Shown here piece after piece: positions 5,978 to 26,780 of a DNA stretch of 64,000 nucleotides. The stretch's first letter is position 1. Every line of letters begins with the position of its first letter. The notes below the pieces were generated by a model. The model had not been told where the DNA came from. It did not search any database and saw only the letters and a list, made by a program, of their open reading frames with translations. A program made the translations under genes and the position numbers. This stretch comes from an uncultured Candidatus Bathyarchaeia archaeon (GTDB lineage Archaea > Thermoproteota > Bathyarchaeia > Bathyarchaeales > DTEX01): the NCBI GenBank assembly GCA_964512445.1, contig CAZEGS010000001.1:4673-68672 (forward strand), read 5' to 3'.

Positions 5978-7105
5978 TCAGATATGCTGATTCCTTATAA
6001 TTCGGGTATTCCAGCCATATTTTAATGCAGTTTTATACATCGTTAAAATGTTCTCTACCGGCACATCTGGCTGCATAGCGTGAGTTGGACCTAAGATTAG
6101 CCCTGTGGGTCCAAGCGTGGATATACGTTCCTTCACCTCCCGAGCTACATCTTCCGAACTGCCAAAAGGTAAAGTGCTCTGCACACCTATTGTTCCATCA
6201 AAACATAACTTGTCTCCATAAAGCTCCTTAAGCTTAGCCGGATCCATACATTCTGGCTGGATAGGATTTAGTATATCAACCCCTATCTCTATAAGATCTG
6301 GAATTATCGGTTCAATCCAGCCGTCGCTGTGAAAGAAAAAGAAGACTCCGTTTCTGTGGCAAAGATCTATCAGTTCAGCGTATTTAGGCTTCAAGAATCT
6401 TCTCCACATCTGAGGAGAAAGCATCATTCCCTTCTGCATTCCAACATCATCTCCATCCGTTATAACGTCAACTCCAGCTTCACATAGCAAAGAGGCTTCT
6501 TCCATCCTCAGCTTGTGTAGTCCATCCAAAATTCTGTTCGCCTCATCTGGTTTTACGAACATCTTTCGAATAATCTCCGAGAAACCAGTCAGCTGCCACG
6601 CTATCTCCCATAAATGAGTGACTCCGCCTTGCAAACAGAAGTCCTCATATTTCCTACGCATTTCTCTGACGGAGTCAATTGATTCCTCATCGATTTCCGG
6701 CCATATATAATCATCCAAACTTACCGTCTGTAATGGATGCTTTATGAATGTGTAAGTGTATGTATGATCTGGGGCCCATATGCTCTCAACCCCCCAAATA
6801 TCTCTTCTGATCTCAAATGCGCCTCTATATCCGATTGTGTAGGCGGTTCCATACGGCCCCTCCTTCTGTTCTACATTTTCTGGAAGGTAGCCTCCCCTTA
6901 GCCTCAATCCGACGCCTATGACGTCTACTCCCAAAGACTTATAGATCTTGATTCGCCCTTCCTCCGTTTTATCCTCAACGCCTAATGCTCCTCTCAATCT
7001 TTCATAAACTTCCGGACGGACACGTAGGGTGAGCGGTATCCTATCAGGATCTTCAAGCAGTATACTTCTGATACATCTTTCCCTAGATGAGATCAAAACA
7101 ATCAC
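5978..7105 (-). CDS. uroporphyrinogen decarboxylase (URO-D) family protein / MtaA-CmuA-like
   Basis: 375 aa. The C-terminal half FFFHSDGWIEPIIPDLIEIGVDILNPIQPE...ILGPTHAMQPDVPVENI matches the URO-D TIM-barrel pattern. Confidence 0.7.
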   Translation of the reverse strand: MIVLISSRERCIRSILLEDPDRIPLTLRVRPEVYERLRGALGVEDKTEEGRIKIYKSLGVDVIGVGLRLRGGYLPENVEQKEGPYGTAYTIGYRGAFEIRRDIWGVESIWAPDHTYTYTFIKHPLQTVSLDDYIWPEIDEESIDSVREMRRKYEDFCLQGGVTHLWEIAWQLTGFSEIIRKMFVKPDEANRILDGLHKLRMEEASLLCEAGVDVITDGDDVGMQKGMMLSPQMWRRFLKPKYAELIDLCHRNGVFFFFHSDGWIEPIIPDLIEIGVDILNPIQPECMDPAKLKELYGDKLCFDGTIGVQSTLPFGSSEDVAREVKERISTLGPTGLILGPTHAMQPDVPVENILTMYKTALKYGWNTRIIRNQHI

Positions 7106-17955: not shown

Positions 17956-20900
17956 CTAAGCTTCTACAAATTTAGATAAACTCGTTTGTTTAGTCTCCTC
18001 TCCACTCTCGAATATCGATTTTATCTCCTCCTCGATTAGGAAGATCCGCTGAGCATAATATCTAGGCATATCATATTTCTTAATCAGATTCCGAGCTTCT
18101 TCCAGATACTTCTCTATACTACCACGATAGACCGTTAAGGTAAGTTCACCTCCACACTCGATGCATCTGCCTGATAGCGGAGCTCTCCTATACCTCTTGT
18201 TACATCTTTTGCATCTGAAGCTCTGAGACGTGTATGCCCGAAGATTTCCAGAGATGTCCCGTAGAAAATGTGTTGTGAGCACTATCTCTGCTACCCGTTT
18301 CGCGTCTACAGCTTCAATCTTCTCAGCGAGATGTAGCTGAGCATTCAGTTTATCTCTCATCTTCCGGAGCTTCTTGTATTGACTTTCCTTTGTCGCCTCA
18401 TTAATGTTGGATGTTGGAGTTGTAAATCCGAATCCTTGAAGTTGCGTTTCTTTTCCAAACCTATGCTTGACTATATCAATCATCTTCATTAAGTCTCTAG
18501 CACTTGTGCCTTTCAATGTCTCTTCATAGAACTTCAGGGGATACTTGAATGCCACATCGATTTCATGAGCTTGCCTTTGAATTTCTTGGGGATTTATAGC
18601 TCGAATAATAAATAGAGGAGAATCCATTATTCCTCCTATTCGATTCGGCAGATACTCTCTTGAGAAGTTTAAGAAGGCATCTAATGCCATAATTATGCTG
18701 TCTTCATCTCCATCGCAATCTCTACGCTTGGCGGAATGCCAGAATGGGTGAGCGAAGCATACGTTTAGATCAGTGAAGCCTATTATTCTGCCTAGAACAC
18801 CTGCACATGTATGGGGAGCTAATCCTATCACCAATTTTCCAACGAGGTCTTCGGGGCGGGATACATTATAGAATGGAGGTAGATCATATACTTTCTGTAG
18901 AAGCTCATCCACAAATCTCGTTATACGAATCAGATAATCTATGCTCTTTCTGGGAATCACAATATCCTGAACCTTGAGTTCGCATATCTGATCGGATCTG
19001 ACTAGTGGATCTCCCATATAGTCATGGGTATAACCAAGCTTTCTGAGAGTCTTAATTGAGACGCCTATCTCATTCGGCTTGAAGTGTGTTAAGGGAGCAT
19101 TTGTCATATCAAATCTTACAGTTCCATCCTTGTATACTGACAAGTTATATTTGGCTCTGAGGATTCCCTTCTCAAGAATCTCCGGCGTCTTCGTCTTGTT
19201 TGTTAAGCCCTTTACTCCTTTAATTTGTTTCGGCTTGTATCCAAGCTTTTTACATGCTTTATCAAGTAGGCTCTTTAGAGGTATCGATTGCTCCACATAG
19301 TTTCTGGTTTCAATCTTACAGACTGGACAGACCTCGCTCTTCAGGCTTTTTCCACATCTGGGACAGATGAATTCGAGAACTGTTGGAGATCGACAAGAGG
19401 GGCACAGCTGCATAAATGTTGTTATCTGACACTTTGGACATCTCCGCTTAACTATCTCGACACTTATGGCTCTATGCTCGCAGGCTTTTATGATATCTCT
19501 TTGTGCTCCACCGTTCAGACCGACTGGAAAAAGAATGTGAACCGGAGGAGCCATTTCTCTTTTACTTGCCTTTTCCGGACGCCCAACCCTCGCTCCGATA
19601 AATGTTGGAGCTTTATCTCGTATCTTTATCCCCGAGATTCTAGATAGATTTTCAAGAGTTGAAAGTTCATCGTCTATTTCTTCTTTCCCAGCTCCGTCAA
19701 GTCCAAGAGTGAAGGAGAACGAGTATGCATCTTCATTCTCTATAATTATCTTGTCTTCAACAACTCTGTGAGGAATGCATATCTGTTCAAGCTTCTCCTT
19801 TATCTTTCCAACAAGCTTTCCTTCTATTCGCTTTACTATCCCATTGATTTTCTCCACTTTTGCTTCTAGCAGCCAAGAACGAAGCTCCCTCACATCAGAC
19901 GGGAGAATATTAGCCCAGAAATAAGTATACGCTGGATGAAGAGGAACCTTAAGGGTCAGACTTATCTTTGTAGCTTCTTCTACGCTTGGCACGTCATAGA
20001 ATGGAGACTTAATGTATCTCATTAGAGATTCTGGCGGAATAGAAATCTTCTCCGAAGCTTCCTTCAAGTTCCCGCCGAACCTTTCAGCTATCGCCTCCTC
20101 AACTTCCTCCGCCCACCATTCTTCAGTATAGCTTGCCGGAAGGAGCTTCTTGTTATTGTATAGAAAATCACCGAAGCTCACTAGGAGATCGCCGAGAAAA
20201 AGTATCTTGTCAATTTTATCTTTGATGCGATCATAGTTCTCATAGGAGACCTTGACTACCGAGCCGTCTTTCAACTTTACGACGGGCGGTTCTATCGAGT
20301 CTACGGAGAGAACAACTCCTGACTTGCCGGGAGTCTCAATCTTGATCTGGGTGCCTCCTGCCAAAAAATTCTGAAGGATCCTCATTGTTAATGGATGGAC
20401 GGCAACGGCTGCTAGCCCGGTATTTCTAGATCTTCCATAGCGAAGTCTAAATCCGCCCCTTCTTGAGGGGAAGCTCAGTATTGGGCGGCCGGCTGGAACA
20501 TCCTCCATGAAACCTGATTTTTTCTTTCTTACAGCCTCCCGAATATCTTTCAGCCATTCCCATCCTTCGACTCCAAGACCCTCCACAACTGCAAGTACCT
20601 TTGCAGCTCGCCCAACTATGCCATCGTTTACTACGCGCAGGGCTCCCCCTCGCAGACAGTTTGTTTCAATACGAGGGAGATTGCGGAAAGATGAAACCTC
20701 AATATTGTTTGATGGAATTCCCGTGATTTCTACGGGGAGATTCTTTAAAGCTTTCCTTACTTCTTCATCTGAGACGCGATACTGGAAACGGCCAACCTCC
20801 CTTTCATAAAGCCTTAGTTCCTCTATAAAGCGGCTGATCTCTTCTTCAGTCGGCTTATAGCGATCTAAGCCTAGAAGGCGACGGACAAAATCCGCTACAA

Positions 20901-21387
20901 CTGGCGTGAGGGCAGTCTCTGTCCCACCTGCTGATCGTATCGGACCTGCAAAGTATATGGCGAGATATCTGGAGCCATCCATGTTGGATTTGATGAGTAC
21001 CTTGGATATACCTTCTGAGTATACGGCTGCGGTTACCCCTTCTGTGAGAATTGCAAGGGCGGTTCTAATAGCCAGCGCAGCTAACTTTTCATTATCATAT
21101 CGACCAAACTTTCCCTTAACTATCTCCTCAGCAATCTTAAATGCCATCCTCTCTCTTGACATCTTTTTCGAGAGACTTCGTATTCTCTCAGCAAGTTTTG
21201 GTATACCTATGAAGCCCTCCACAAGCCCCGCGAGATCTTCAGCTATCTCAATTTCGGGGTAAGGTTTTGGATCAAGCCCCAACTTTCTGGCCGCTGCAGA
21301 AATCTCACGAATTCTGTTTAGAGCCTTATCTAAATCTGAGAAGTACTTCTGATACTCTTTTGTTAAGTTCTGAAGCAAATCTATCAC
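17956..21387 (-). CDS. dp2: DNA polymerase II (PolD) large subunit DP2
   Basis: 1143 aa. Contains Zn-finger clusters (CPKCQ...CPSC, CPRCG...CPVC, CKRC...CIECG) and the conserved PolD catalytic core. No intein-sized insertion is seen. Confidence 0.95.
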   Translation of the reverse strand: MIDLLQNLTKEYQKYFSDLDKALNRIREISAAARKLGLDPKPYPEIEIAEDLAGLVEGFIGIPKLAERIRSLSKKMSRERMAFKIAEEIVKGKFGRYDNEKLAALAIRTALAILTEGVTAAVYSEGISKVLIKSNMDGSRYLAIYFAGPIRSAGGTETALTPVVADFVRRLLGLDRYKPTEEEISRFIEELRLYEREVGRFQYRVSDEEVRKALKNLPVEITGIPSNNIEVSSFRNLPRIETNCLRGGALRVVNDGIVGRAAKVLAVVEGLGVEGWEWLKDIREAVRKKKSGFMEDVPAGRPILSFPSRRGGFRLRYGRSRNTGLAAVAVHPLTMRILQNFLAGGTQIKIETPGKSGVVLSVDSIEPPVVKLKDGSVVKVSYENYDRIKDKIDKILFLGDLLVSFGDFLYNNKKLLPASYTEEWWAEEVEEAIAERFGGNLKEASEKISIPPESLMRYIKSPFYDVPSVEEATKISLTLKVPLHPAYTYFWANILPSDVRELRSWLLEAKVEKINGIVKRIEGKLVGKIKEKLEQICIPHRVVEDKIIIENEDAYSFSFTLGLDGAGKEEIDDELSTLENLSRISGIKIRDKAPTFIGARVGRPEKASKREMAPPVHILFPVGLNGGAQRDIIKACEHRAISVEIVKRRCPKCQITTFMQLCPSCRSPTVLEFICPRCGKSLKSEVCPVCKIETRNYVEQSIPLKSLLDKACKKLGYKPKQIKGVKGLTNKTKTPEILEKGILRAKYNLSVYKDGTVRFDMTNAPLTHFKPNEIGVSIKTLRKLGYTHDYMGDPLVRSDQICELKVQDIVIPRKSIDYLIRITRFVDELLQKVYDLPPFYNVSRPEDLVGKLVIGLAPHTCAGVLGRIIGFTDLNVCFAHPFWHSAKRRDCDGDEDSIIMALDAFLNFSREYLPNRIGGIMDSPLFIIRAINPQEIQRQAHEIDVAFKYPLKFYEETLKGTSARDLMKMIDIVKHRFGKETQLQGFGFTTPTSNINEATKESQYKKLRKMRDKLNAQLHLAEKIEAVDAKRVAEIVLTTHFLRDISGNLRAYTSQSFRCKRCNKRYRRAPLSGRCIECGGELTLTVYRGSIEKYLEEARNLIKKYDMPRYYAQRIFLIEEEIKSIFESGEETKQTSLSKFVEA

Positions 21388-21403: not shown

Positions 21404-21715
21404 TTATTCAGTGTGAATTCTGCAGAGTATAATTGTGGACCACTTCTCTATTGGACGCCCAACGACTTGACGATAAGTATTCTTTGCAAGTTCTACTCTA
21501 TGATTAACGCATGATCTACATCGTTCATGTCTCATGTCTGAAGGCCCATCACACTGACCACAGTTGAGAAGTAAAGTCTCTCCTAAACCTTTAAGATTTG
21601 TCCAAGCAAACTCTCGCTCATCATATTCAGGTTCAAAGTCAGGCCAAATATCATAGAGATCCTCTTGCCCTAAAACTTTCTTTAGGGATGCAAAATAATT
21701 CTCAAATGAGGTCAC
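21404..21715 (-). CDS. small zinc-ribbon protein, hypothetical
   Basis: 103-aa ORF with CGQC-x9-CRSC, tightly packed between the GGGP synthase and dp2 genes on the same strand. Confidence 0.45.
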   Translation of the reverse strand: MTSFENYFASLKKVLGQEDLYDIWPDFEPEYDEREFAWTNLKGLGETLLLNCGQCDGPSDMRHERCRSCVNHRVELAKNTYRQVVGRPIEKWSTIILCRIHTE

Positions 21716-21731: not shown

Positions 21732-22529
21732 TCAGCTAGACTGGCTAGTATTTCTATGTATTACTCCCTCTTTTATGCCTTCTACTATCTCCTTGATCTT
21801 GATCCTAAGCGATTGCGGATCACTCTCCTCCAAAGCAGTACTGGCAACTACGATATCGGCTCCGGCATGAACGATCTCTTTCGCTTGAACCCCTGTTCTT
21901 ACCCCGCCGCCAACAAGAAGAGGTAAATTAACAGTACTCTTCACCATCCTAATAATATTGGATGGAACAGGCTTGCTTACCCCAGATCCGCCTTCTAAAT
22001 AAATGAACCGCATACCCAAGTATTGAGCTGCTAAAGCATGAGCAGCTGCTAAGCCAGACTTGTTATAGGGAATAGGACATGCCTTTCCGATTACCGCTGC
22101 TGCGCCTCCCTCACCTAAAATCATGTAGCCAAGAGGAATCGGCTCTATACGTAATTTTTTAATTAGAGGAGCGGCAAGTACTTGTGCTCCAATTATGAAG
22201 TAGGGATCAGCAGAGTTAAGAAGCGACATGAACCATATTGCATCTGCATATCTGCTGATACCCGTAATATTGTTTGGAAATAGAATTATAGGTATGTTGA
22301 CGCTCTTCTTGATTGATTTAACAATCTCATCGAGATCCTCGGCGGAGACAAGTGTAGAGCCTCCCACCATAATTGCTGAAGCTCCTGCTTTCTCGCCTTC
22401 CTCCGCTATGAGAGAAGCAGACTCGCTAGTGACCTCTTCAGGATCAATTAAGGGTATGAATATGGAGCCTTTTTCTCGAATGCTTCTGAGAAGGTATCTT
22501 TCAATCTTACCTAACATGAACCTTTTCAC
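21732..22529 (-). CDS. geranylgeranylglyceryl phosphate synthase (PcrB/GGGPS family)
   Basis: 265 aa TIM barrel. The FIPLIDPE, MVGGS, FIYLEGGSG and LLVGGGV motifs are typical of GGGPS. Confidence 0.88.
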   Translation of the reverse strand: MKRFMLGKIERYLLRSIREKGSIFIPLIDPEEVTSESASLIAEEGEKAGASAIMVGGSTLVSAEDLDEIVKSIKKSVNIPIILFPNNITGISRYADAIWFMSLLNSADPYFIIGAQVLAAPLIKKLRIEPIPLGYMILGEGGAAAVIGKACPIPYNKSGLAAAHALAAQYLGMRFIYLEGGSGVSKPVPSNIIRMVKSTVNLPLLVGGGVRTGVQAKEIVHAGADIVVASTALEESDPQSLRIKIKEIVEGIKEGVIHRNTSQSS

Positions 22530-22539
22530 CTTTTCAGAA

Positions 22540-22767
22540 CTAACTATAATAGTTGTCGATGAACATGCAGTAGATGTCGACCGCCTCTAGATGCTCCTTT
22601 TTAGGAATCTCTGCAACCAGTCCGCAGCTTCCGCATTTTACAATAGCATTCTCAGAGTTCCTTTTAATTTCGATTTTAATCGCTTCCCTACCACATCTTG
22701 GACAGAGAAACACGCTGGGAAGCTTCTTTTTAGGCATCCGAATAACTTTTCGTCTTCTTCTACCCAT
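22540..22767 (-). CDS. elf1: Elf1-like transcription elongation factor (zinc ribbon)
   Basis: Basic N-terminus MGRRRRKVIRMPKKKLP, then FLCPRCG...VKCGSCG...EAVDIYCMFID, which parallels eukaryotic Elf1 (C4 ribbon followed by VDVYSDWID-like tail). Confidence 0.8.
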   Translation of the reverse strand: MGRRRRKVIRMPKKKLPSVFLCPRCGREAIKIEIKRNSENAIVKCGSCGLVAEIPKKEHLEAVDIYCMFIDNYYS

Positions 22768-22841
22768 CTCTCATCCAACAGAAAATGAATATGGAATATA
22801 TCCTCTCTTAAAGGTTTGCTGTTTTTAATCTATATATTTTA

Positions 22842-22914
22842 GTGTGATGTAACATGTGATCTAAGAATGATGTGTTACATCACAGATCACATCAAGCGAA
22901 TTTAGAGATCACAC
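22842..22914. repeat. palindromic word cluster A (TGTGAT / ATCACA family)
   Basis: TGTGAT at 22843 and 22855. TGATGT-GTT-ACATCA at 22868-22882, nested inside TGTGATCT (22855-62) / AGATCACA (22884-91). GATCACAC at 22907-14. Confidence 0.8.
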
Positions 22915-23229
22915 GTAACGTTGAAGGTTCAGGTTTCAGATAGCAGTCTTAAGAGATTTCTAAGAAACAAAAAGCTCCCTGAAAAACTCGTTTTTGATCA
23001 AGATAAAAATAGGCAATTTTAGTTTAAAATTGCTAATAATCTTTAAAAAATCAAATAAAAACTCGAGTGGAGCGTTTTTTGAGGGTCTCTGTATGATAGA
23101 TTCTGCTTATTGCAAAGGCTTATAAGGTATGATGGGATTAGGGTGTATATAAAATTGTATCCAAATGAGGGGTGATTCTTCCTGAAAGATGAATCTTTAA
23201 AAAATAGTATTAGAAGGTGGCTTTTAGGA

Positions 23230-23673
23230 ATTTTTCGAGACCCTATTGTCGAAATACTTCTAAAAAACAGTCATTTAACAAAAATACAACTAGAAACGCT
23301 TTTAATTGATTTTTTAGCAGAAAAAATGTCCGGAAAAAGAATAGTTTACGAAGACAAAGCTAAGATGAGACTTATAAAAACTGGTGTAAGCCGCGGCTCT
23401 TTCAACCGAACCTTAGCTCAAGCTAAATATAATACTATAAAATCCATCTACACACTTATTCTATTAGGTTATCTTGGGATCCTCGATACGCCACATCTTG
23501 ACCCTTACATTGAAATTTCTAATAGAATAAGAGACTATATGGAAGCATACAGAACTTTTTGGCAGGAAGGAAAACAAACAAAAGAACATCTCAGAATAAT
23601 GCAAATGCTACAGCGAGAACTAGAAGATGGTTTAATGAGGCTTTCTAAGCCAAAATCGATGAGCAATAAGTGA
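23230..23673 (+). CDS. small HTH DNA-binding protein (sigma-70 region 4 / Tfx-like pattern), start uncertain
   Basis: The track start is ATG 23326, but the frame is open from 23176 and reads protein-like (LKNSIRRWLLGIFRDPIVEILLKNSHLTKIQLETLLIDFLAEK). ATT at 23230 lies 9 nt after AGGTGG. HTH candidate: GVSRGSFNRTLAQAKYNTIKSI. Confidence 0.55.
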   Translation: MFRDPIVEILLKNSHLTKIQLETLLIDFLAEKMSGKRIVYEDKAKMRLIKTGVSRGSFNRTLAQAKYNTIKSIYTLILLGYLGILDTPHLDPYIEISNRIRDYMEAYRTFWQEGKQTKEHLRIMQMLQRELEDGLMRLSKPKSMSNK

Positions 23674-23693
23674 TCTGTGACATCACATATCAC
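23670..23693. repeat. palindromic word cluster B
   Basis: GTGAT-CT-GTGA-CA-TCAC-AT-ATCAC, a 24-nt interrupted palindrome overlapping the TGA stop of the HTH ORF. Confidence 0.8.
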
Positions 23694-23793
23694 ACTAGAC
23701 ATTCTAAGTGTTTTCATAAAAGATAAAGAAATAGGCCTATTTTAAAGCTCTTTTTGTGAACAAAAATAATTTTTGGGAAAGTTTTTTATGATG

Positions 23794-23856
23794 CTAGTGA
23801 TATCATATATGATCTGATTGTGATGTGTGACATCACAGGTTGGAGAGTGTGATCTT
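23794..23856. repeat. palindromic word cluster C
   Basis: GTGATATCA; TGTGATGT-GTG-ACATCACA at 23819-23837; GTGTGATCT at 23847-23855. 23806-23840 matches 22853-22887 at 27/35 positions. Confidence 0.8.
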
Positions 23857-23869
23857 GGAAGATTTTACA

Positions 23870-24526
23870 ATGCTGATGATTAATTTACTGCTGTTCTTCT
23901 CGATATCAACAATTCTAGTAATATATATTAAAAAAATTCGGAATGCCGACATAGAGTATACAAAGGCAAAAAGTATCCTAGAAGAAATAGTTCTGAGTTT
24001 TAGTAGGGAAATTCAGGATTTAGAACAGAAAATTGAAGATATCAATGTAAGATTAGAGAATATTCGGATGCTTGATAAGGATCAAATTAAGTCGGAACTT
24101 AACGCTCTTTCTTCTAAGATAGAAAACTTGATGAGCCTATATTCATCTTTAGAGAGAAAGATTGAGAATTTTAAGGCAGAGATTAATAGATTTTCAAGAT
24201 CTATCAGTCAACAAACAGCAGATGTAAGGGAAGAATCAGAGCCGGACATAACACCTAAACCAGCTTTTCATCTAAGAAGAGAAAGAGCTCTAGCGCCTTT
24301 AACACCAACAGAGCTCAAAGTTTTGGAGATTTTATCTACTGAAGGAGATAAGACTGTACGTGAGATTAGGAGTAGGCTTGGATTAACGAGGGAACATACT
24401 GGACGTTTGATGAAGAGTCTATATGATAGAGGATATGTTGAAAGAAGAACAAATAGGATCCCTTATGTATATAGAATTAAGAGGGAGATGGAGAATCTTC
24501 TCAATAGAAATCAAAGTGATTTTTAA
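23870..24526 (+). CDS. membrane-anchored coiled-coil protein with C-terminal MarR/TrmB-like winged helix
   Basis: N-terminal TM MLMINLLLFFSISTILVIYI. About 110 aa of heptad-like sequence (EQKIEDINVRLENIRML...LERKIENFKAEINRF). C-terminal LTPTELKVLEILSTEGDKTVREIRSRLGLTREHTGRLMKSLYDRGYVER. Confidence 0.65.
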   Translation: MLMINLLLFFSISTILVIYIKKIRNADIEYTKAKSILEEIVLSFSREIQDLEQKIEDINVRLENIRMLDKDQIKSELNALSSKIENLMSLYSSLERKIENFKAEINRFSRSISQQTADVREESEPDITPKPAFHLRRERALAPLTPTELKVLEILSTEGDKTVREIRSRLGLTREHTGRLMKSLYDRGYVERRTNRIPYVYRIKREMENLLNRNQSDF

Positions 24527-24527
24527 T

Positions 24528-24926
24528 TCATCTGGTTATAAGAAGACGAAAACGAGTTTTGTTTGAAGATTTCTGTTTAATGAGTAAGCCTCGATTAGCC
24601 AAACGGGATAGATAAGTAGAAACGGTGCTTAAACCTATATGTTCACCTGTAACATTCTCGTATTCTATCTGTACATCTCTCGGAGAAAACCAAGAAGATG
24701 AAAAATTTTTCTCAATTATAGATTTAATTTTTTCAAATTTCGTTAGACTTTCCTCCGCCCTTTCTGAAAACTTATCTTCATGCATTCCTCCAAGAAGCTC
24801 GATCATATCTAAAATTTTGAGAACATTTCTTCTAGAGATCTTCCCCTCCAGCATAATGGTATATCGATTACCTGATTCATCGTAAACTTCAATACGCAGC
24901 TTCCTCGCAGGCAATACCCTCACCAT
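24528..24926 (-). CDS. winged-helix DNA-binding protein, hypothetical
   Basis: 132 aa. C-terminal HIGLSTVSTYLSRLANRGLLIKQK is a wHTH recognition-helix pattern. It is transcribed away from the oriC left flank. Confidence 0.6.
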   Translation of the reverse strand: MVRVLPARKLRIEVYDESGNRYTIMLEGKISRRNVLKILDMIELLGGMHEDKFSERAEESLTKFEKIKSIIEKNFSSSWFSPRDVQIEYENVTGEHIGLSTVSTYLSRLANRGLLIKQKSSNKTRFRLLITR

Positions 24927-25114
24927 AAGCTAAAGGATCATTTCATTTCTCTAGTTACACTTCACAAGTTATAAGATAATCGGTGATATGTGAAAATAAA
25001 AAAAGAAAAATTATGGATAAAATAAAGAAAGAGCCGAAAAATCCAAAAATTTCCAGAGAAACTTCACAGATTTTTTGCGATAACAAAAAAGGAAAAGGAA
25101 AAAGAAAAGGGATC

Positions 25115-25142
25115 AAATCTCCAGTGGAAACGAAGGGGTGGC
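25115..25142 (+). repeat. ORB1 (origin recognition box, forward)
   Basis: AAATCTCCAGTGGAAACGAAGGGGTGG. Confidence 0.85.
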
Positions 25143-25293
25143 CTTTCACAAAAAAGTGAAAATAAATCAGGATTATAAAAAGAAGAAAAACTCAAAAATA
25201 GACTTTTACCTAGTAATTTAAAACAGATTTTCAAAAACAATATATTTTATTCGTACTCAGTGATAAAACTTGTATTTACTGTTAACAACGGAC

Positions 25294-25318
25294 GCACCCA
25301 TATTTTTCCAGTGGAAAT
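25294..25318 (-). repeat. ORB2 (origin recognition box, reverse orientation)
   Basis: GCACCCATATTTTTCCAGTGGAAAT. The reverse complement gives TTTCCACTGGAAAAATATGGGTG. Confidence 0.8.
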
Positions 25319-25395
25319 AAATTTTTTACTTTTCTTATTTCTAAAAAATGAAATAAATATAATCATATATTCACATTCCACGCCCAAAATAATGT

Positions 25396-25427
25396 TATTT
25401 CCAGTTGAAATAATGGGGTGTGGGGGT
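25396..25427 (+). repeat. ORB3 (origin recognition box, forward)
   Basis: TATTTCCAGTTGAAATAATGGGGTGTGGGGG. Confidence 0.8.
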
Positions 25428-25538
25428 TCCTCAATGTGATTTGTTTTATTATCAATTTTTTTGTAGAGCAGATCTTATCTATGAAACCCGATGTGAGCTG
25501 ATTGTCTTTAACAATTCACCGATATCAGAGGATCACAA

Positions 25539-26780
25539 ATGAACAAACAAAGCGAAATATTGGAGGAGGTCTTCAACAACTTTTTAGGAGAATCCAGAAT
25601 CTTTAAGAATAGAGAAGCTCTCAGACATGATTACATTCCTGATTATCTTCCCCATAGAGAAGAAGAGATTCGAATGCTCGGTCAAATATTAGGCCCCTCA
25701 TTAAGAGGTACACTTTGCTCCAATATCCTTATTTATGGAAAAACTGGGACAGGAAAAACTGCGGTGACAAAATTTGTTCTTAAACGTTTAGCAGAAAAAG
25801 CTGATGAGATTAATTCTCCACTCAGAGTTTCATTTGTAAATTGTAGACTTGTTGGAACAGAGTACAGGGTGCTTTCAGCATTATGCTCCAGTATAGACGT
25901 CAAGGTTCCATTTACTGGACTTGCTTTAGGTGAAGTTTTTGATAGGTTTAAATCAGCTCTAGATTCTCAAAAAATCGTTCTAGTAGTAGCATTAGATGAA
26001 ATAGATGCTCTAATAAAGGATAGAGGAGATATCCTCCTCTATGAACTTACAAGAATTAATGAAAATCTCAGTCAAAGCAAAGTTTCAATTCTAGGAATCT
26101 CTAATGATCTTCGATTCAAAGACATGCTTGATCCAAGAGTTCTTAGTACTTTAAGCGAAGAGGAAATAATATTCAAGCCATACAATGCTGAGGAGCTTCA
26201 AGATATTTTAGAGCAGCGCGCCAAGATCGCATTTAAAGAAGATGTCTCAGCTGATGTTGCCATAAAATTATGTTCAGCAATCGCAGCCGCTGAGCATGGA
26301 GATGCAAGAAGAGCCTTAGATCTTCTCAGAGTAGCTGCGGAGTTGGCTGAAAGGGAAGGTGAAAGAACAATCACGGAGGATCATGTATATCGAGCGCAGA
26401 AAAGGATCGAACATGATCGTGTTGTTGAAACTCTAAAGAGTCTTCCAATGCATTCTAAAATTGTTCTTTTAAGCATCTTTCTACTTTCAAAATCAAAAGC
26501 AAAGGGATTCATGACGGGTGACATCTATAATGTTTACTGTGAGTTATGCAAGGAGATGGGTGTAAACCCGCTCACACAAAGAAGGGTCAGTGGATTAATA
26601 AATGAACTTGATGTAATTGGACTTGTCAATTCAAGAGTTGTGAGTTTAGGCAGATATGGCAGATCAAAAAAGACTACTCTCGGAGTACCCTATAGTGTGA
26701 TAAAAGAGGCTCTTTTCGAGGATGAAAGAATGCGAAATATGGTAACATATATTCCTAGATATCTAAATTCTATACGTTAA
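25539..26780 (+). CDS. cdc6: Orc1/Cdc6 replication initiator (AAA+ plus winged helix)
   Basis: Walker A GKTGTGKT, Walker B VVALDEID, sensor regions and a C-terminal wH (RRVSGLINELDVIGLV). Confidence 0.95.
   Translation: MNKQSEILEEVFNNFLGESRIFKNREALRHDYIPDYLPHREEEIRMLGQILGPSLRGTLCSNILIYGKTGTGKTAVTKFVLKRLAEKADEINSPLRVSFVNCRLVGTEYRVLSALCSSIDVKVPFTGLALGEVFDRFKSALDSQKIVLVVALDEIDALIKDRGDILLYELTRINENLSQSKVSILGISNDLRFKDMLDPRVLSTLSEEEIIFKPYNAEELQDILEQRAKIAFKEDVSADVAIKLCSAIAAAEHGDARRALDLLRVAAELAEREGERTITEDHVYRAQKRIEHDRVVETLKSLPMHSKIVLLSIFLLSKSKAKGFMTGDIYNVYCELCKEMGVNPLTQRRVSGLINELDVIGLVNSRVVSLGRYGRSKKTTLGVPYSVIKEALFEDERMRNMVTYIPRYLNSIR

Follow-up and report, generated by a model that had tools for sequence, protein, structure and literature searches.

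What are three uncharacterised genes doing beside the predicted replication origin of an uncultured archaeon? The locus that raises this question lies in a 64,000-nucleotide stretch (here called the window) of contig CAZEGS010000001.1, from assembly GCA_964512445.1 of a Candidatus Bathyarchaeia archaeon; in protein searches, the relatives of the host proteins carry Bathyarchaeia names. The genes, here g1, g2 and g3, stand between the gene for Elf1 and the predicted origin. A preliminary description, made from the sequence alone, had seen in them three small DNA-binding proteins, one anchored in the membrane, and had proposed a tether of origin-proximal DNA or a membrane-sequestered regulator. 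All three open reading frames (ORFs) proved to be real, conserved genes. Our answer, to which we assign a probability of roughly 0.45, is that the trio is an ancient, self-contained and self-regulating DNA-binding module built around the membrane-anchored protein g2. The trio is deeply conserved and apparently undescribed; it may plausibly also hold origin-proximal DNA at the membrane, whether as its function or as a by-product. Its coding features are as follows.

23182 to 23673, + strand: g1, 163 amino acids (aa), with CTG at the start position, which was placed by alignment with orthologues
23840 (TTG) or 23870 (ATG) to 24526, + strand: g2, 228 or 218 aa
about 23873 to 23929, + strand: transmembrane (TM) helix of g2
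about 23942 to 24244, + strand: coiled coil of g2, followed by a flexible linker
24299 to 24478, + strand: winged helix-turn-helix (wHTH) domain of g2
24528 to 24926, − strand: g3, 132 aa, convergent with g2 at a distance of 1 nt and transcribed away from the origin region

The architecture first described for g2 (then put at 219 aa) was confirmed: an N-terminal TM helix, a coiled coil of ~100 aa and a C-terminal MarR/TrmB wHTH. The last of these, residues 154–213 of the 228-aa form, belongs to the MarR/TrmB winged-helix superfamily, with scores above the gathering cut-offs of Pfam MarR (PF01047; E = 1.6e-9, 37.9 bits, cut-off 24.6), MarR_2 (PF12802; 36.1 bits, cut-off 27) and TrmB (PF01978; 35.3 bits, cut-off 25.6); matches to CasR and Csa3 in PADLOC reflect the generic wHTH and coiled coil only. 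The first ~20 residues form a hydrophobic helix (19-residue Kyte-Doolittle mean 2.05–3.27) in 36 of 36 family members. No lysine or arginine precedes this helix in 34 of them, and between two and six (mostly four to six) occupy the 15 residues after it in all 36. This charge pattern is the reverse of that of a Sec signal peptide and thus predicts an N-out/C-in topology, which would make the remainder of g2 cytoplasmic and leave 1–17 residues (mostly 2–6) outside the membrane, with no sensor ectodomain. Residues ~25–125 follow a heptad pattern, and the family profile matched the GCN4, chemoreceptor and reovirus sigma-1 coiled coils in the PDB. In the family alignment a juxtamembrane motif (EYxKAK...SFN) is conserved; after it the middle part differs among members in both sequence and length, a linker with Pro and Gly comes next, and the recognition helix, LTREHTxRLMKSLYxRGY, hardly varies. 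Relatives of g2 number 163 at E ≤ 1e-3.

As far as we can tell, this layout is a novelty among archaeal DNA-binding proteins of the membrane. Canonical members of the MarR and TrmB families are soluble. With them g2 shares a winged helix that passes the Pfam cut-offs and palindromic sites on its own promoter; unlike canonical MarR proteins of ~140–160 aa, it sets a TM helix, coiled coil and linker before the wHTH, lacks the N- and C-terminal dimer helices, and carries the wHTH at its extreme C-terminus with ~15 residues after it. The bacterial proteins ToxR, CadC and TcpP are also single-pass proteins that bind DNA from the membrane, with an N-terminal OmpR-type wHTH and a periplasmic sensor; there is no homology between them and g2, which has no such sensor. 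Among archaeal winged-helix regulators bound to the membrane, the closest precedent is ArnR/ArnR1 of Sulfolobus acidocaldarius. These membrane-acting one-component transcription factors have the wHTH at the N-terminus, two TM helices at the C-terminus and a sensing and HAMP region in the middle (PMC12107092, citing Lassak 2013 and Bischof 2019). Like g2, these are archaeal, membrane-seated, DNA-binding winged-helix proteins, and ArnR oligomerises and binds promoter boxes (PMC12107092). By comparison, g2 has the reversed order (single N-terminal TM helix, coiled coil, C-terminal wHTH) and no HAMP match. The genes that ArnR controls are those of the archaellum and pili, and it does not lie beside an origin; the likeness is that of a generic winged helix only.

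The second component, g1, had been described as a helix-turn-helix (HTH) protein of 115–147 aa within a region starting at 23230, a position that falls inside the gene. The reading frame extends without a stop from 23176, and its entire upstream part aligns with orthologues of 159–167 aa, whose ATG, TTG or GTG starts coincide with the CTG at 23182. Upstream of the first ATG (23326) lie 11 of the 31 invariant residues, which puts the true product at ~163 aa; gene callers give only a 115-aa form (P0142) that begins at this internal ATG and lacks those 11 residues. A CTG occupies the start position in 5 of 81 loci and may be a genuine non-canonical start. Of the trio, g1 is the most conserved (53–66% identity across the class vs. 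31–44% for g2), and judged by database searches it is a large unannotated protein family, with 1608 relatives at E ≤ 1e-3 and no Pfam family. A profile search of 1.8 billion representative proteins returned 302 clusters (50% identity), among them shorter relatives of ~130 aa, with the source names Nitrososphaerales, Nitrososphaeria or Caldarchaeum. A scan with a single genome for each GTDB species detected the gene in 448 of them; the loci compared here are those of the best 80 of these 448 species plus 6 further ones, 86 in all, searched by tblastn with the window proteins.

An AlphaFold 2 (AF2) model of g1 has seven helices, with a predicted local distance difference test (pLDDT) score of 76. 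The HTH first proposed for it found no counterpart in profile or fold: searches of Pfam, NCBIfam, PHROGs and PADLOC gave no family match, a member-wise Pfam scan gave scattered weak matches only, the g1 profile met only coiled-coil noise among PDB sequences, and Foldseek returned nothing below E = 0.38 from the PDB and BFVD (rows for TFIIB/cyclin, at a template-modelling score of ~0.25, are not evidence). Two candidate assignments were rejected. A by-eye reading as a sigma-70 region 4-like HTH had an hhalign probability of 0.15% against Escherichia coli RpoE, and a DUF134-like HTH was matched by only 5 of 53 members, at a best E of 0.079. An invariant helix rich in Arg, Asn and Gln suggests that g1 may bind DNA.

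For g3, the AF2 model (pLDDT 78) and Foldseek bore out the convergent wHTH protein first described and added a small N-terminal domain, a beta-hairpin and helix (residues 9–44) ahead of the C-terminal winged helix (63–128). Foldseek matched the Fur DNA-binding domain, RosR and MarR at E ~2e-3, the match to Fur covering the DNA-binding domain only, and the fold is a generic winged helix, not a sign of Fur membership. The Fur family itself was rejected: PF01475 scored 17.5 bits, below the cut-off of 23.1, and the wHTH is at the C-terminus, with no metal-binding domain after it. We found 81 relatives of g3. An assignment to a known, unrelated regulon, which would have spoken against the first description, came for none of the three proteins from structure or profile searches.

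What these proteins might bind is suggested by repeated sites and promoter elements within the locus.

22843 to 22915, no strand: array A, TGTGAT/ATCACA half-sites 270–340 bp upstream of g1
23146 to 23160, + strand: palindromic element TATA(T/C)AAAANTGTAT at the predicted g1 transcription start
23676 to 23694, no strand: array B, a TGTGACATCACA palindrome and a third ATCACA directly 3' of the g1 stop codon
23797 to 23850, no strand: array C, between a TATA-like box (~23783–23793) and the g2 start
24958 to 24975, − strand: g3 promoter element TTATAACTTGTGAAGT, a TATA-like box and then a TTGTGAA repeat

The three repeat clusters of the preliminary description are real. The palindrome GTGAYRTCAC occurs twice in the window (at 23677 in array B and 23827 in array C) against 0.12 copies expected, and the only dense half-site clusters in the 64 kb are those at 22843 and 23797, arrays A and C, each with 7 half-site words in 100 nt. 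Array A contains 12-mers at 22843 and 22873 with one mismatch each, and its equivalents stand 80–680 bp upstream of g1 in 16 of 17 inspected loci in addition to the window. Across loci, 147 dense arrays fall between a point 900 bp upstream of g1 and the start of g2, compared with 4 in 735 kb of flanks, an enrichment of ~200-fold, and an exact palindrome lies within the g1–g2 spacer in 79 of 82 loci. Every other unique locus was inspected for array C, and in each of them the region holds several half-site words. Its usual form is a TATA-like box, TGTGAT-N-TGTGAT, two to three inverted ATCAC(A) and the g2 start codon, and the common pattern reads TGTGAT-N-TGTGAT-GCAAC, 8–10 nt, ATCAC, 5–6 nt, ATCACA; of the 77 unique loci, 48 have the tandem TGTGAY and 34 the full pattern. 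In one Nitrososphaeria locus (L088), where the background of TGTGAT-type words is high, more dense clusters of this type were seen beyond the g1–g2 zone, at ~3273 and 6798–7020, near the 3' end of the gene for the large subunit of DNA polymerase D (PolD-DP2) and in PcrB/Elf1.

Array B is an unusual cis-element, a palindrome locked to a stop codon. In 63 of 77 unique loci its first base is the one just ahead of the g1 stop codon, which places the TGA inside the palindrome; in the window it lies 6 nt downstream of the stop. Across loci AnATCACA follows, and the palindrome core is kept across Bathyarchaeia. The 18-mer GTGACGTCACAAATCACA of this array had at least 120 matches in metagenome contigs, of which 97 are at the 3' end of g1, 8 are untestable, 2 are inverted in the g1–g2 spacer and 13 lie elsewhere, by rough estimate about the chance expectation for an 18-mer in such a collection. 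One contig with the inverted site in the g1–g2 spacer (L140, Ga0209979_1000071) has the rearranged order g1, g2, g3, Cdc6, DP1, PhoU, Elf1, with Elf1 on the far side. In another group of loci, a clade with a class I/II aminotransferase gene (L041, 5345–5395; also L047, L061 and L077), the upstream TGTGAT array lies within the aminotransferase coding sequence (CDS), encoding ..DVMSLITNKSRVIILNYPNNPTG. That the array is kept there argues for selection on DNA sites inside a gene.

The promoters of g1 and g3 have conserved elements of their own. With up to two substitutions allowed, the g1 element recurs in 78 of 81 unique loci, mostly 35–36 nt before the g1 start (range 34–37, one outlier), and its consensus TATACAAAANTGTAT is also present in Nitrososphaeria and Caldarchaeum loci. 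It is placed between a TATA-like box ~24 nt upstream and a Shine-Dalgarno-like GGAGG downstream, and may act as an operator. The g3 element, TTATAACTTGTGAAG with up to three substitutions, was found in 62 of 70 unique loci, mostly 37–48 nt before the g3 start, with a second TTGTGAA ~14 nt on in many. Archaeal repressors usually bind at or just downstream of the TATA box. Conserved elements at or just 3' of the TATA boxes of all three genes thus indicate an interlocked autoregulatory circuit, and autoregulation fits the presence of site arrays on the module's own promoters.

The genes and the predicted origin around the trio are these.

17956 to 21387, − strand: PolD-DP2
21404 to 21715, − strand: Cys-rich ORF of 103 aa, between PolD-DP2 and PcrB
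between the Cys-rich ORF and Elf1: PcrB/GGGP-synthase-like gene
22540 to 22767, − strand: Elf1 (Pfam E = 1.2e-17)
25118 to 25413, + strand: predicted oriC, three TCCAGTGGAAA elements resembling origin recognition boxes (ORBs), two of them trailed by a G-string
25539 to 26780, + strand: Orc1/Cdc6 initiator (Pfam Cdc6_C, E = 1.8e-27; Cdc6_lid, E = 4e-26)
beyond Cdc6, − strand: small subunit of DNA polymerase D (PolD-DP1), then a PhoU-like gene

The TCCAGTGGAAA matches in the window, at 25120, 25307 and 25400 only, are all upstream of cdc6, in an AT-rich spacer between g3 and the initiator gene. Elements of this type are also present in the relatives L001 and L088. ORB-like repeats and cdc6 are kept together in relatives, and from the two a replication origin is predicted at 25118–25413. 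All three elements point in the same direction, on the + strand, as they do in L001; in the more familiar layout, inverted ORBs stand on both sides of the unwinding element. An Rfam scan of 22500–25700 found no RNA family, and a scan for sigma-70 promoters and terminators, a method uninformative for archaea, gave background levels only. The Cys-rich ORF has no Pfam hit and is 58–86% identical in 47 of the 86 related loci; by this comparison it is a conserved unannotated small protein.

Conservation of the trio next to cdc6 and oriC, a check proposed with the preliminary description, was strong in 86 Bathyarchaeia loci and seven Nitrososphaeria lineages. In the former the order Elf1, g1, g2, g3, ORBs, Cdc6 is kept as far as the contigs reach: of the 82 loci whose contig continues beyond g1, all have g2 directly after it and 79 have g3 as well, and cdc6 lies beyond g3 in all 69 that are long enough. 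Nearly all of the 80 fetched loci are named Bathyarchaeia or Bathyarchaeota, and the exceptions (Heimdallarchaeota, Nanoarchaeia, Thermoproteota, Nitrososphaerota, "bacterium") share the gene order and are probably mislabelled bins. From the g2 start to the first ORB the distance is 1.2–4.7 kb (median 1.7 kb) in Bathyarchaeia, and from array C to the first ORB of the window it is 1.3 kb. Insertions were seen between Elf1 and g1 (NadE plus nitrilase, or a divergent class I/II aminotransferase) and between g2 and g3 (a HerA-like ATPase plus a 339-aa partner). Despite them two units persist, g1 with g2 and g3 beside the ORBs, g3 staying origin-adjacent even where the HerA-like genes separate it from g2. 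The HerA-like ATPase beside the origin (DUF87, E = 7e-10; L046, 7462–10000; also L035, L048, L065 and others) belongs to one Bathyarchaeia clade, and its partner in L046 has no Pfam hit.

The seven Nitrososphaeria lineages keep PolD-DP2, PcrB, Elf1, g1, g2, g3, in some arrangements CorA, then ORBs, Cdc6 and PolD-DP1, with minor variation in the orientation of g3 and in inserted genes. Their origin-adjacent g2 proteins are 167–214 aa long and consist of a TM helix, a short coiled coil and a wHTH. In all examined loci but one, g1 and g2 are adjacent and co-directional, with a gap of 5–27 bp in L097, L090 and L219; L097 keeps the pair and has inserted genes further downstream. In hot-spring Nitrososphaeria metagenome-assembled genomes (L087–L089, 10148–10653) an ORF of 144–167 aa with no Pfam hit abuts cdc6 upstream; it is absent in Bathyarchaeia. 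Relatives also include marine metagenome sequences (Tara Oceans), which probably belong to ammonia oxidisers.

This synteny bears on one explanation directly, namely that the locus is the remnant of an integrated plasmid or virus whose low G+C and iteron-like repeats are a foreign replicon's control region. The G+C of 0.32–0.35 across 23–26 kb, against ~0.42 elsewhere in the window, would agree with such a remnant, as would the repeats themselves, but the AT-rich origin has the same low G+C, and neither PHROG matches of note nor an integrase, Rep protein or tRNA target was found. The genes are single-copy and have the same housekeeping neighbours across two archaeal classes, with proteins diverged to 31–40% identity. 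A mobile-element origin of the trio is effectively refuted by the synteny data, and we consider it exceedingly improbable.

The preliminary description had held that homologues at genomic locations unrelated to origins would speak against its reading. Three loci go part of the way towards this, having no cdc6 within 6–8 kb: Caldarchaeum, with g1 and g2, and two hydrothermal Nitrososphaeria (L094/95 and L219), with g3, g1 and g2 in a row, so that g3 is present in two of the three. The adjacency of g1, g2 and g3 even away from cdc6 (L094, L219) marks the trio as a module that stands by itself, often but not necessarily beside an origin. In all three non-origin loci g2 is 124–125 aa long, a TM helix, linker and wHTH with no coiled coil, and keeps the recognition helix as SREHTARL[ML]KK. 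A coiled coil is present in every origin-adjacent g2 (167–275 aa) and in none of the three others, and arrays likewise accompany only the modules that flank an origin, a correlation that involves 3 non-origin loci only, probably 2 independent lineages. Upstream of g3-g1-g2, L094 (3426–4568, three genes upstream) and L219 (3625–4776, two genes upstream) carry a gene for a Peptidase_M50 (site-2 protease, S2P).

These protease genes are the only specific lead to a membrane-sequestered regulator, the second role that had been proposed for g2. The idea takes two forms: a site-2 protease, for example, could release g2 from the membrane for action on distant genes, cdc6 for instance; alternatively, g2 could be an anti-factor that keeps g1 at the membrane as anti-sigma factors keep sigma factors. 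Besides the proteases, a single-pass anchor followed directly by the conserved juxtamembrane motif, the close spacing of g1 and g2 and the in vivo cleavage of ArnR (PMC12107092) are in line with it. The M50 association, however, comes from one pair of related lineages, and the 64-kb window and the conserved block contain no M50 protease; g2 has no extracellular domain for a site-1 cut, and g1 is not sigma-like (the hhalign comparison with RpoE given above). We regard release by proteolysis or anti-factor action as a weaker rival and quite unlikely.

Another explanation is that the trio encodes ordinary local transcription factors whose place at oriC is synteny inherited within a housekeeping block (PolD-DP2, PcrB, Elf1 ... 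Cdc6, PolD-DP1), with no functional link to replication and with a membrane anchor that only tunes regulator availability. In its favour are the three lineages with the module away from cdc6, the putative operators on the genes' own promoters, a MarR/TrmB winged helix typical of autoregulators, and a precedent. The haloarchaeal oapABC (ArvABC) genes are a highly conserved three-gene cluster that flanks the main oriC, across from the gene for Orc1/Cdc6 (PMC7002104). They encode a small Arf/Sar-like GTPase, DUF2073 and DUF2072 proteins and were later assigned to extracellular vesicle formation, not replication (PMC10927574). As a conserved cluster of three genes flanking an origin the present trio is alike; as homologues of oapABC g1–g3 were rejected, with no match to a GTPase, DUF2073 or DUF2072. 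What local regulation leaves unexplained is the strict retention at the origin through insertions of NadE and nitrilase, aminotransferase, HerA-like and CorA genes, the coupling of coiled coil and arrays to origin adjacency, the arrays in coding and stop-codon positions, and their confinement, there being no further array in the window and the four dense ones in the 735 kb of flanks. On this balance we find it doubtful that nothing more than local regulation is involved.

The tether first proposed would account for several of these points. Here g2 and the TGTGAT arrays would together attach the origin region of the chromosome to the membrane: the arrays would be centromere- or parS-like, g2 would fasten the region for positioning or segregation, g1 and g3 would be accessory or regulatory, and autoregulation would be secondary. 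In bacteria, RacA–DivIVA with ram sites, Noc and ParB–PopZ are cases of site-specific proteins that fix clustered oriC-proximal sites at the envelope. RacA, which has a coiled coil, and ParB are soluble proteins that depend on a separate anchor protein, and Noc uses an amphipathic helix. Between g2 and these proteins we found no sequence or fold relationship, and the comparison is one of functional analogy only; nor did g1–g3 have domain matches to ParB or ParA, or the conserved block an ATPase of a ParB/parS or SegB-type system. By analogy, the module could be a functional counterpart of RacA/ram or Noc that extends from Bathyarchaeia to the ammonia-oxidising Nitrososphaeria.

The origin-flanking position conserved across two classes, the locus-specific arrays, their non-promoter members (the palindrome over the g1 stop codon and the array inside the aminotransferase CDS), an anchor without a sensor ectodomain, and a coiled coil of variable length that, with the arrays, tracks origin adjacency at the loci compared all speak for a tether. 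Against it stand the three lineages with the module away from cdc6, the lack of a ParA/SegA-like NTPase in the conserved block, and the dense-array scan, which found no array among the ORBs. The arrays on the g2 and g3 promoters are equally explained by autoregulation, and oapABC is a reminder that origin adjacency can mislead (PMC10927574). We rate the tether in this full form as plausible, though on balance unlikely, with some support from the non-promoter arrays and from the coiled coil that tracks origin adjacency.

The reading that we favour, a self-regulating module around a membrane-anchored protein, would work as follows. An N-terminal signal-anchor would insert g2 in the membrane, N-out/C-in. 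The protein probably dimerises through its coiled coil, a cytoplasmic stalk whose ~100 residues would span ~15 nm, and would carry its MarR/TrmB-type winged helix at the end of a flexible linker. The helical g1 and g3, the latter with a dimerisation domain and a winged helix, would be soluble partners. One or more of the three, most likely g2, would bind the TGTGAT/GTGAYRTCAC arrays; g2 is the best candidate because it has a bona fide wHTH, is a probable coiled-coil dimer and has palindromes over its own promoter. These sites lie on either side of g1 and, at g2, occupy the stretch from TATA box to start codon; their occupation would repress the module. The promoters of g1 and g3 have separate conserved elements where transcription is predicted to begin. 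Were g2 to read the arrays, each occupied one would be at the membrane, since g2 is predicted to be an integral membrane protein, and the module would hold origin-flanking DNA there. The gene models, their conservation and synteny, the domain architecture, the topology signals and the presence, placing and locus-specificity of the site arrays are directly shown by the analysis; the pairing of protein and site, repression, dimerisation and any effect on the position or firing of the origin are steps that we infer.

Several findings weigh against this account. The DNA-binding role of g1 draws no support from any profile or fold match, and a membrane-bound regulator would be expected to sense something, for which g2 has essentially no extracellular part. 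Two array positions, the g1 stop codon and the aminotransferase CDS, are odd for simple operators, and at the non-origin loci arrays are missing although g2 retains its recognition helix. Covariation cannot name the array reader, as the recognition helices of g1, g2 and g3 hardly vary and the core of the palindrome is kept.

The preliminary description knew of no archaeal system with this layout, and the searchable literature (subscription papers lie outside it) likewise yielded no description of a Bathyarchaeia origin, an archaeal origin–membrane tether, a membrane-anchored MarR protein in Thaumarchaeota or this module. To our knowledge, the positioning, organisation and segregation of archaeal origins are largely unexplained outside the SegAB system of Sulfolobus, and we know of no archaeal factor described as attaching an origin to the membrane. 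The module, conserved across two large and ecologically dominant classes, offers testable parts for such questions: a membrane-anchored DNA-binding protein, two partners, one of which (g1) has no recognised fold, and arrays 1–2 kb from the ORBs. Experiments might be possible if cultivated species carry it. We class the module as a variant of the membrane-bound DNA-binding regulators, with a moderate chance of a more novel role; even if it is only a self-regulating circuit, the g1 family, the g2 layout and the stop-codon-locked palindrome stand as results.

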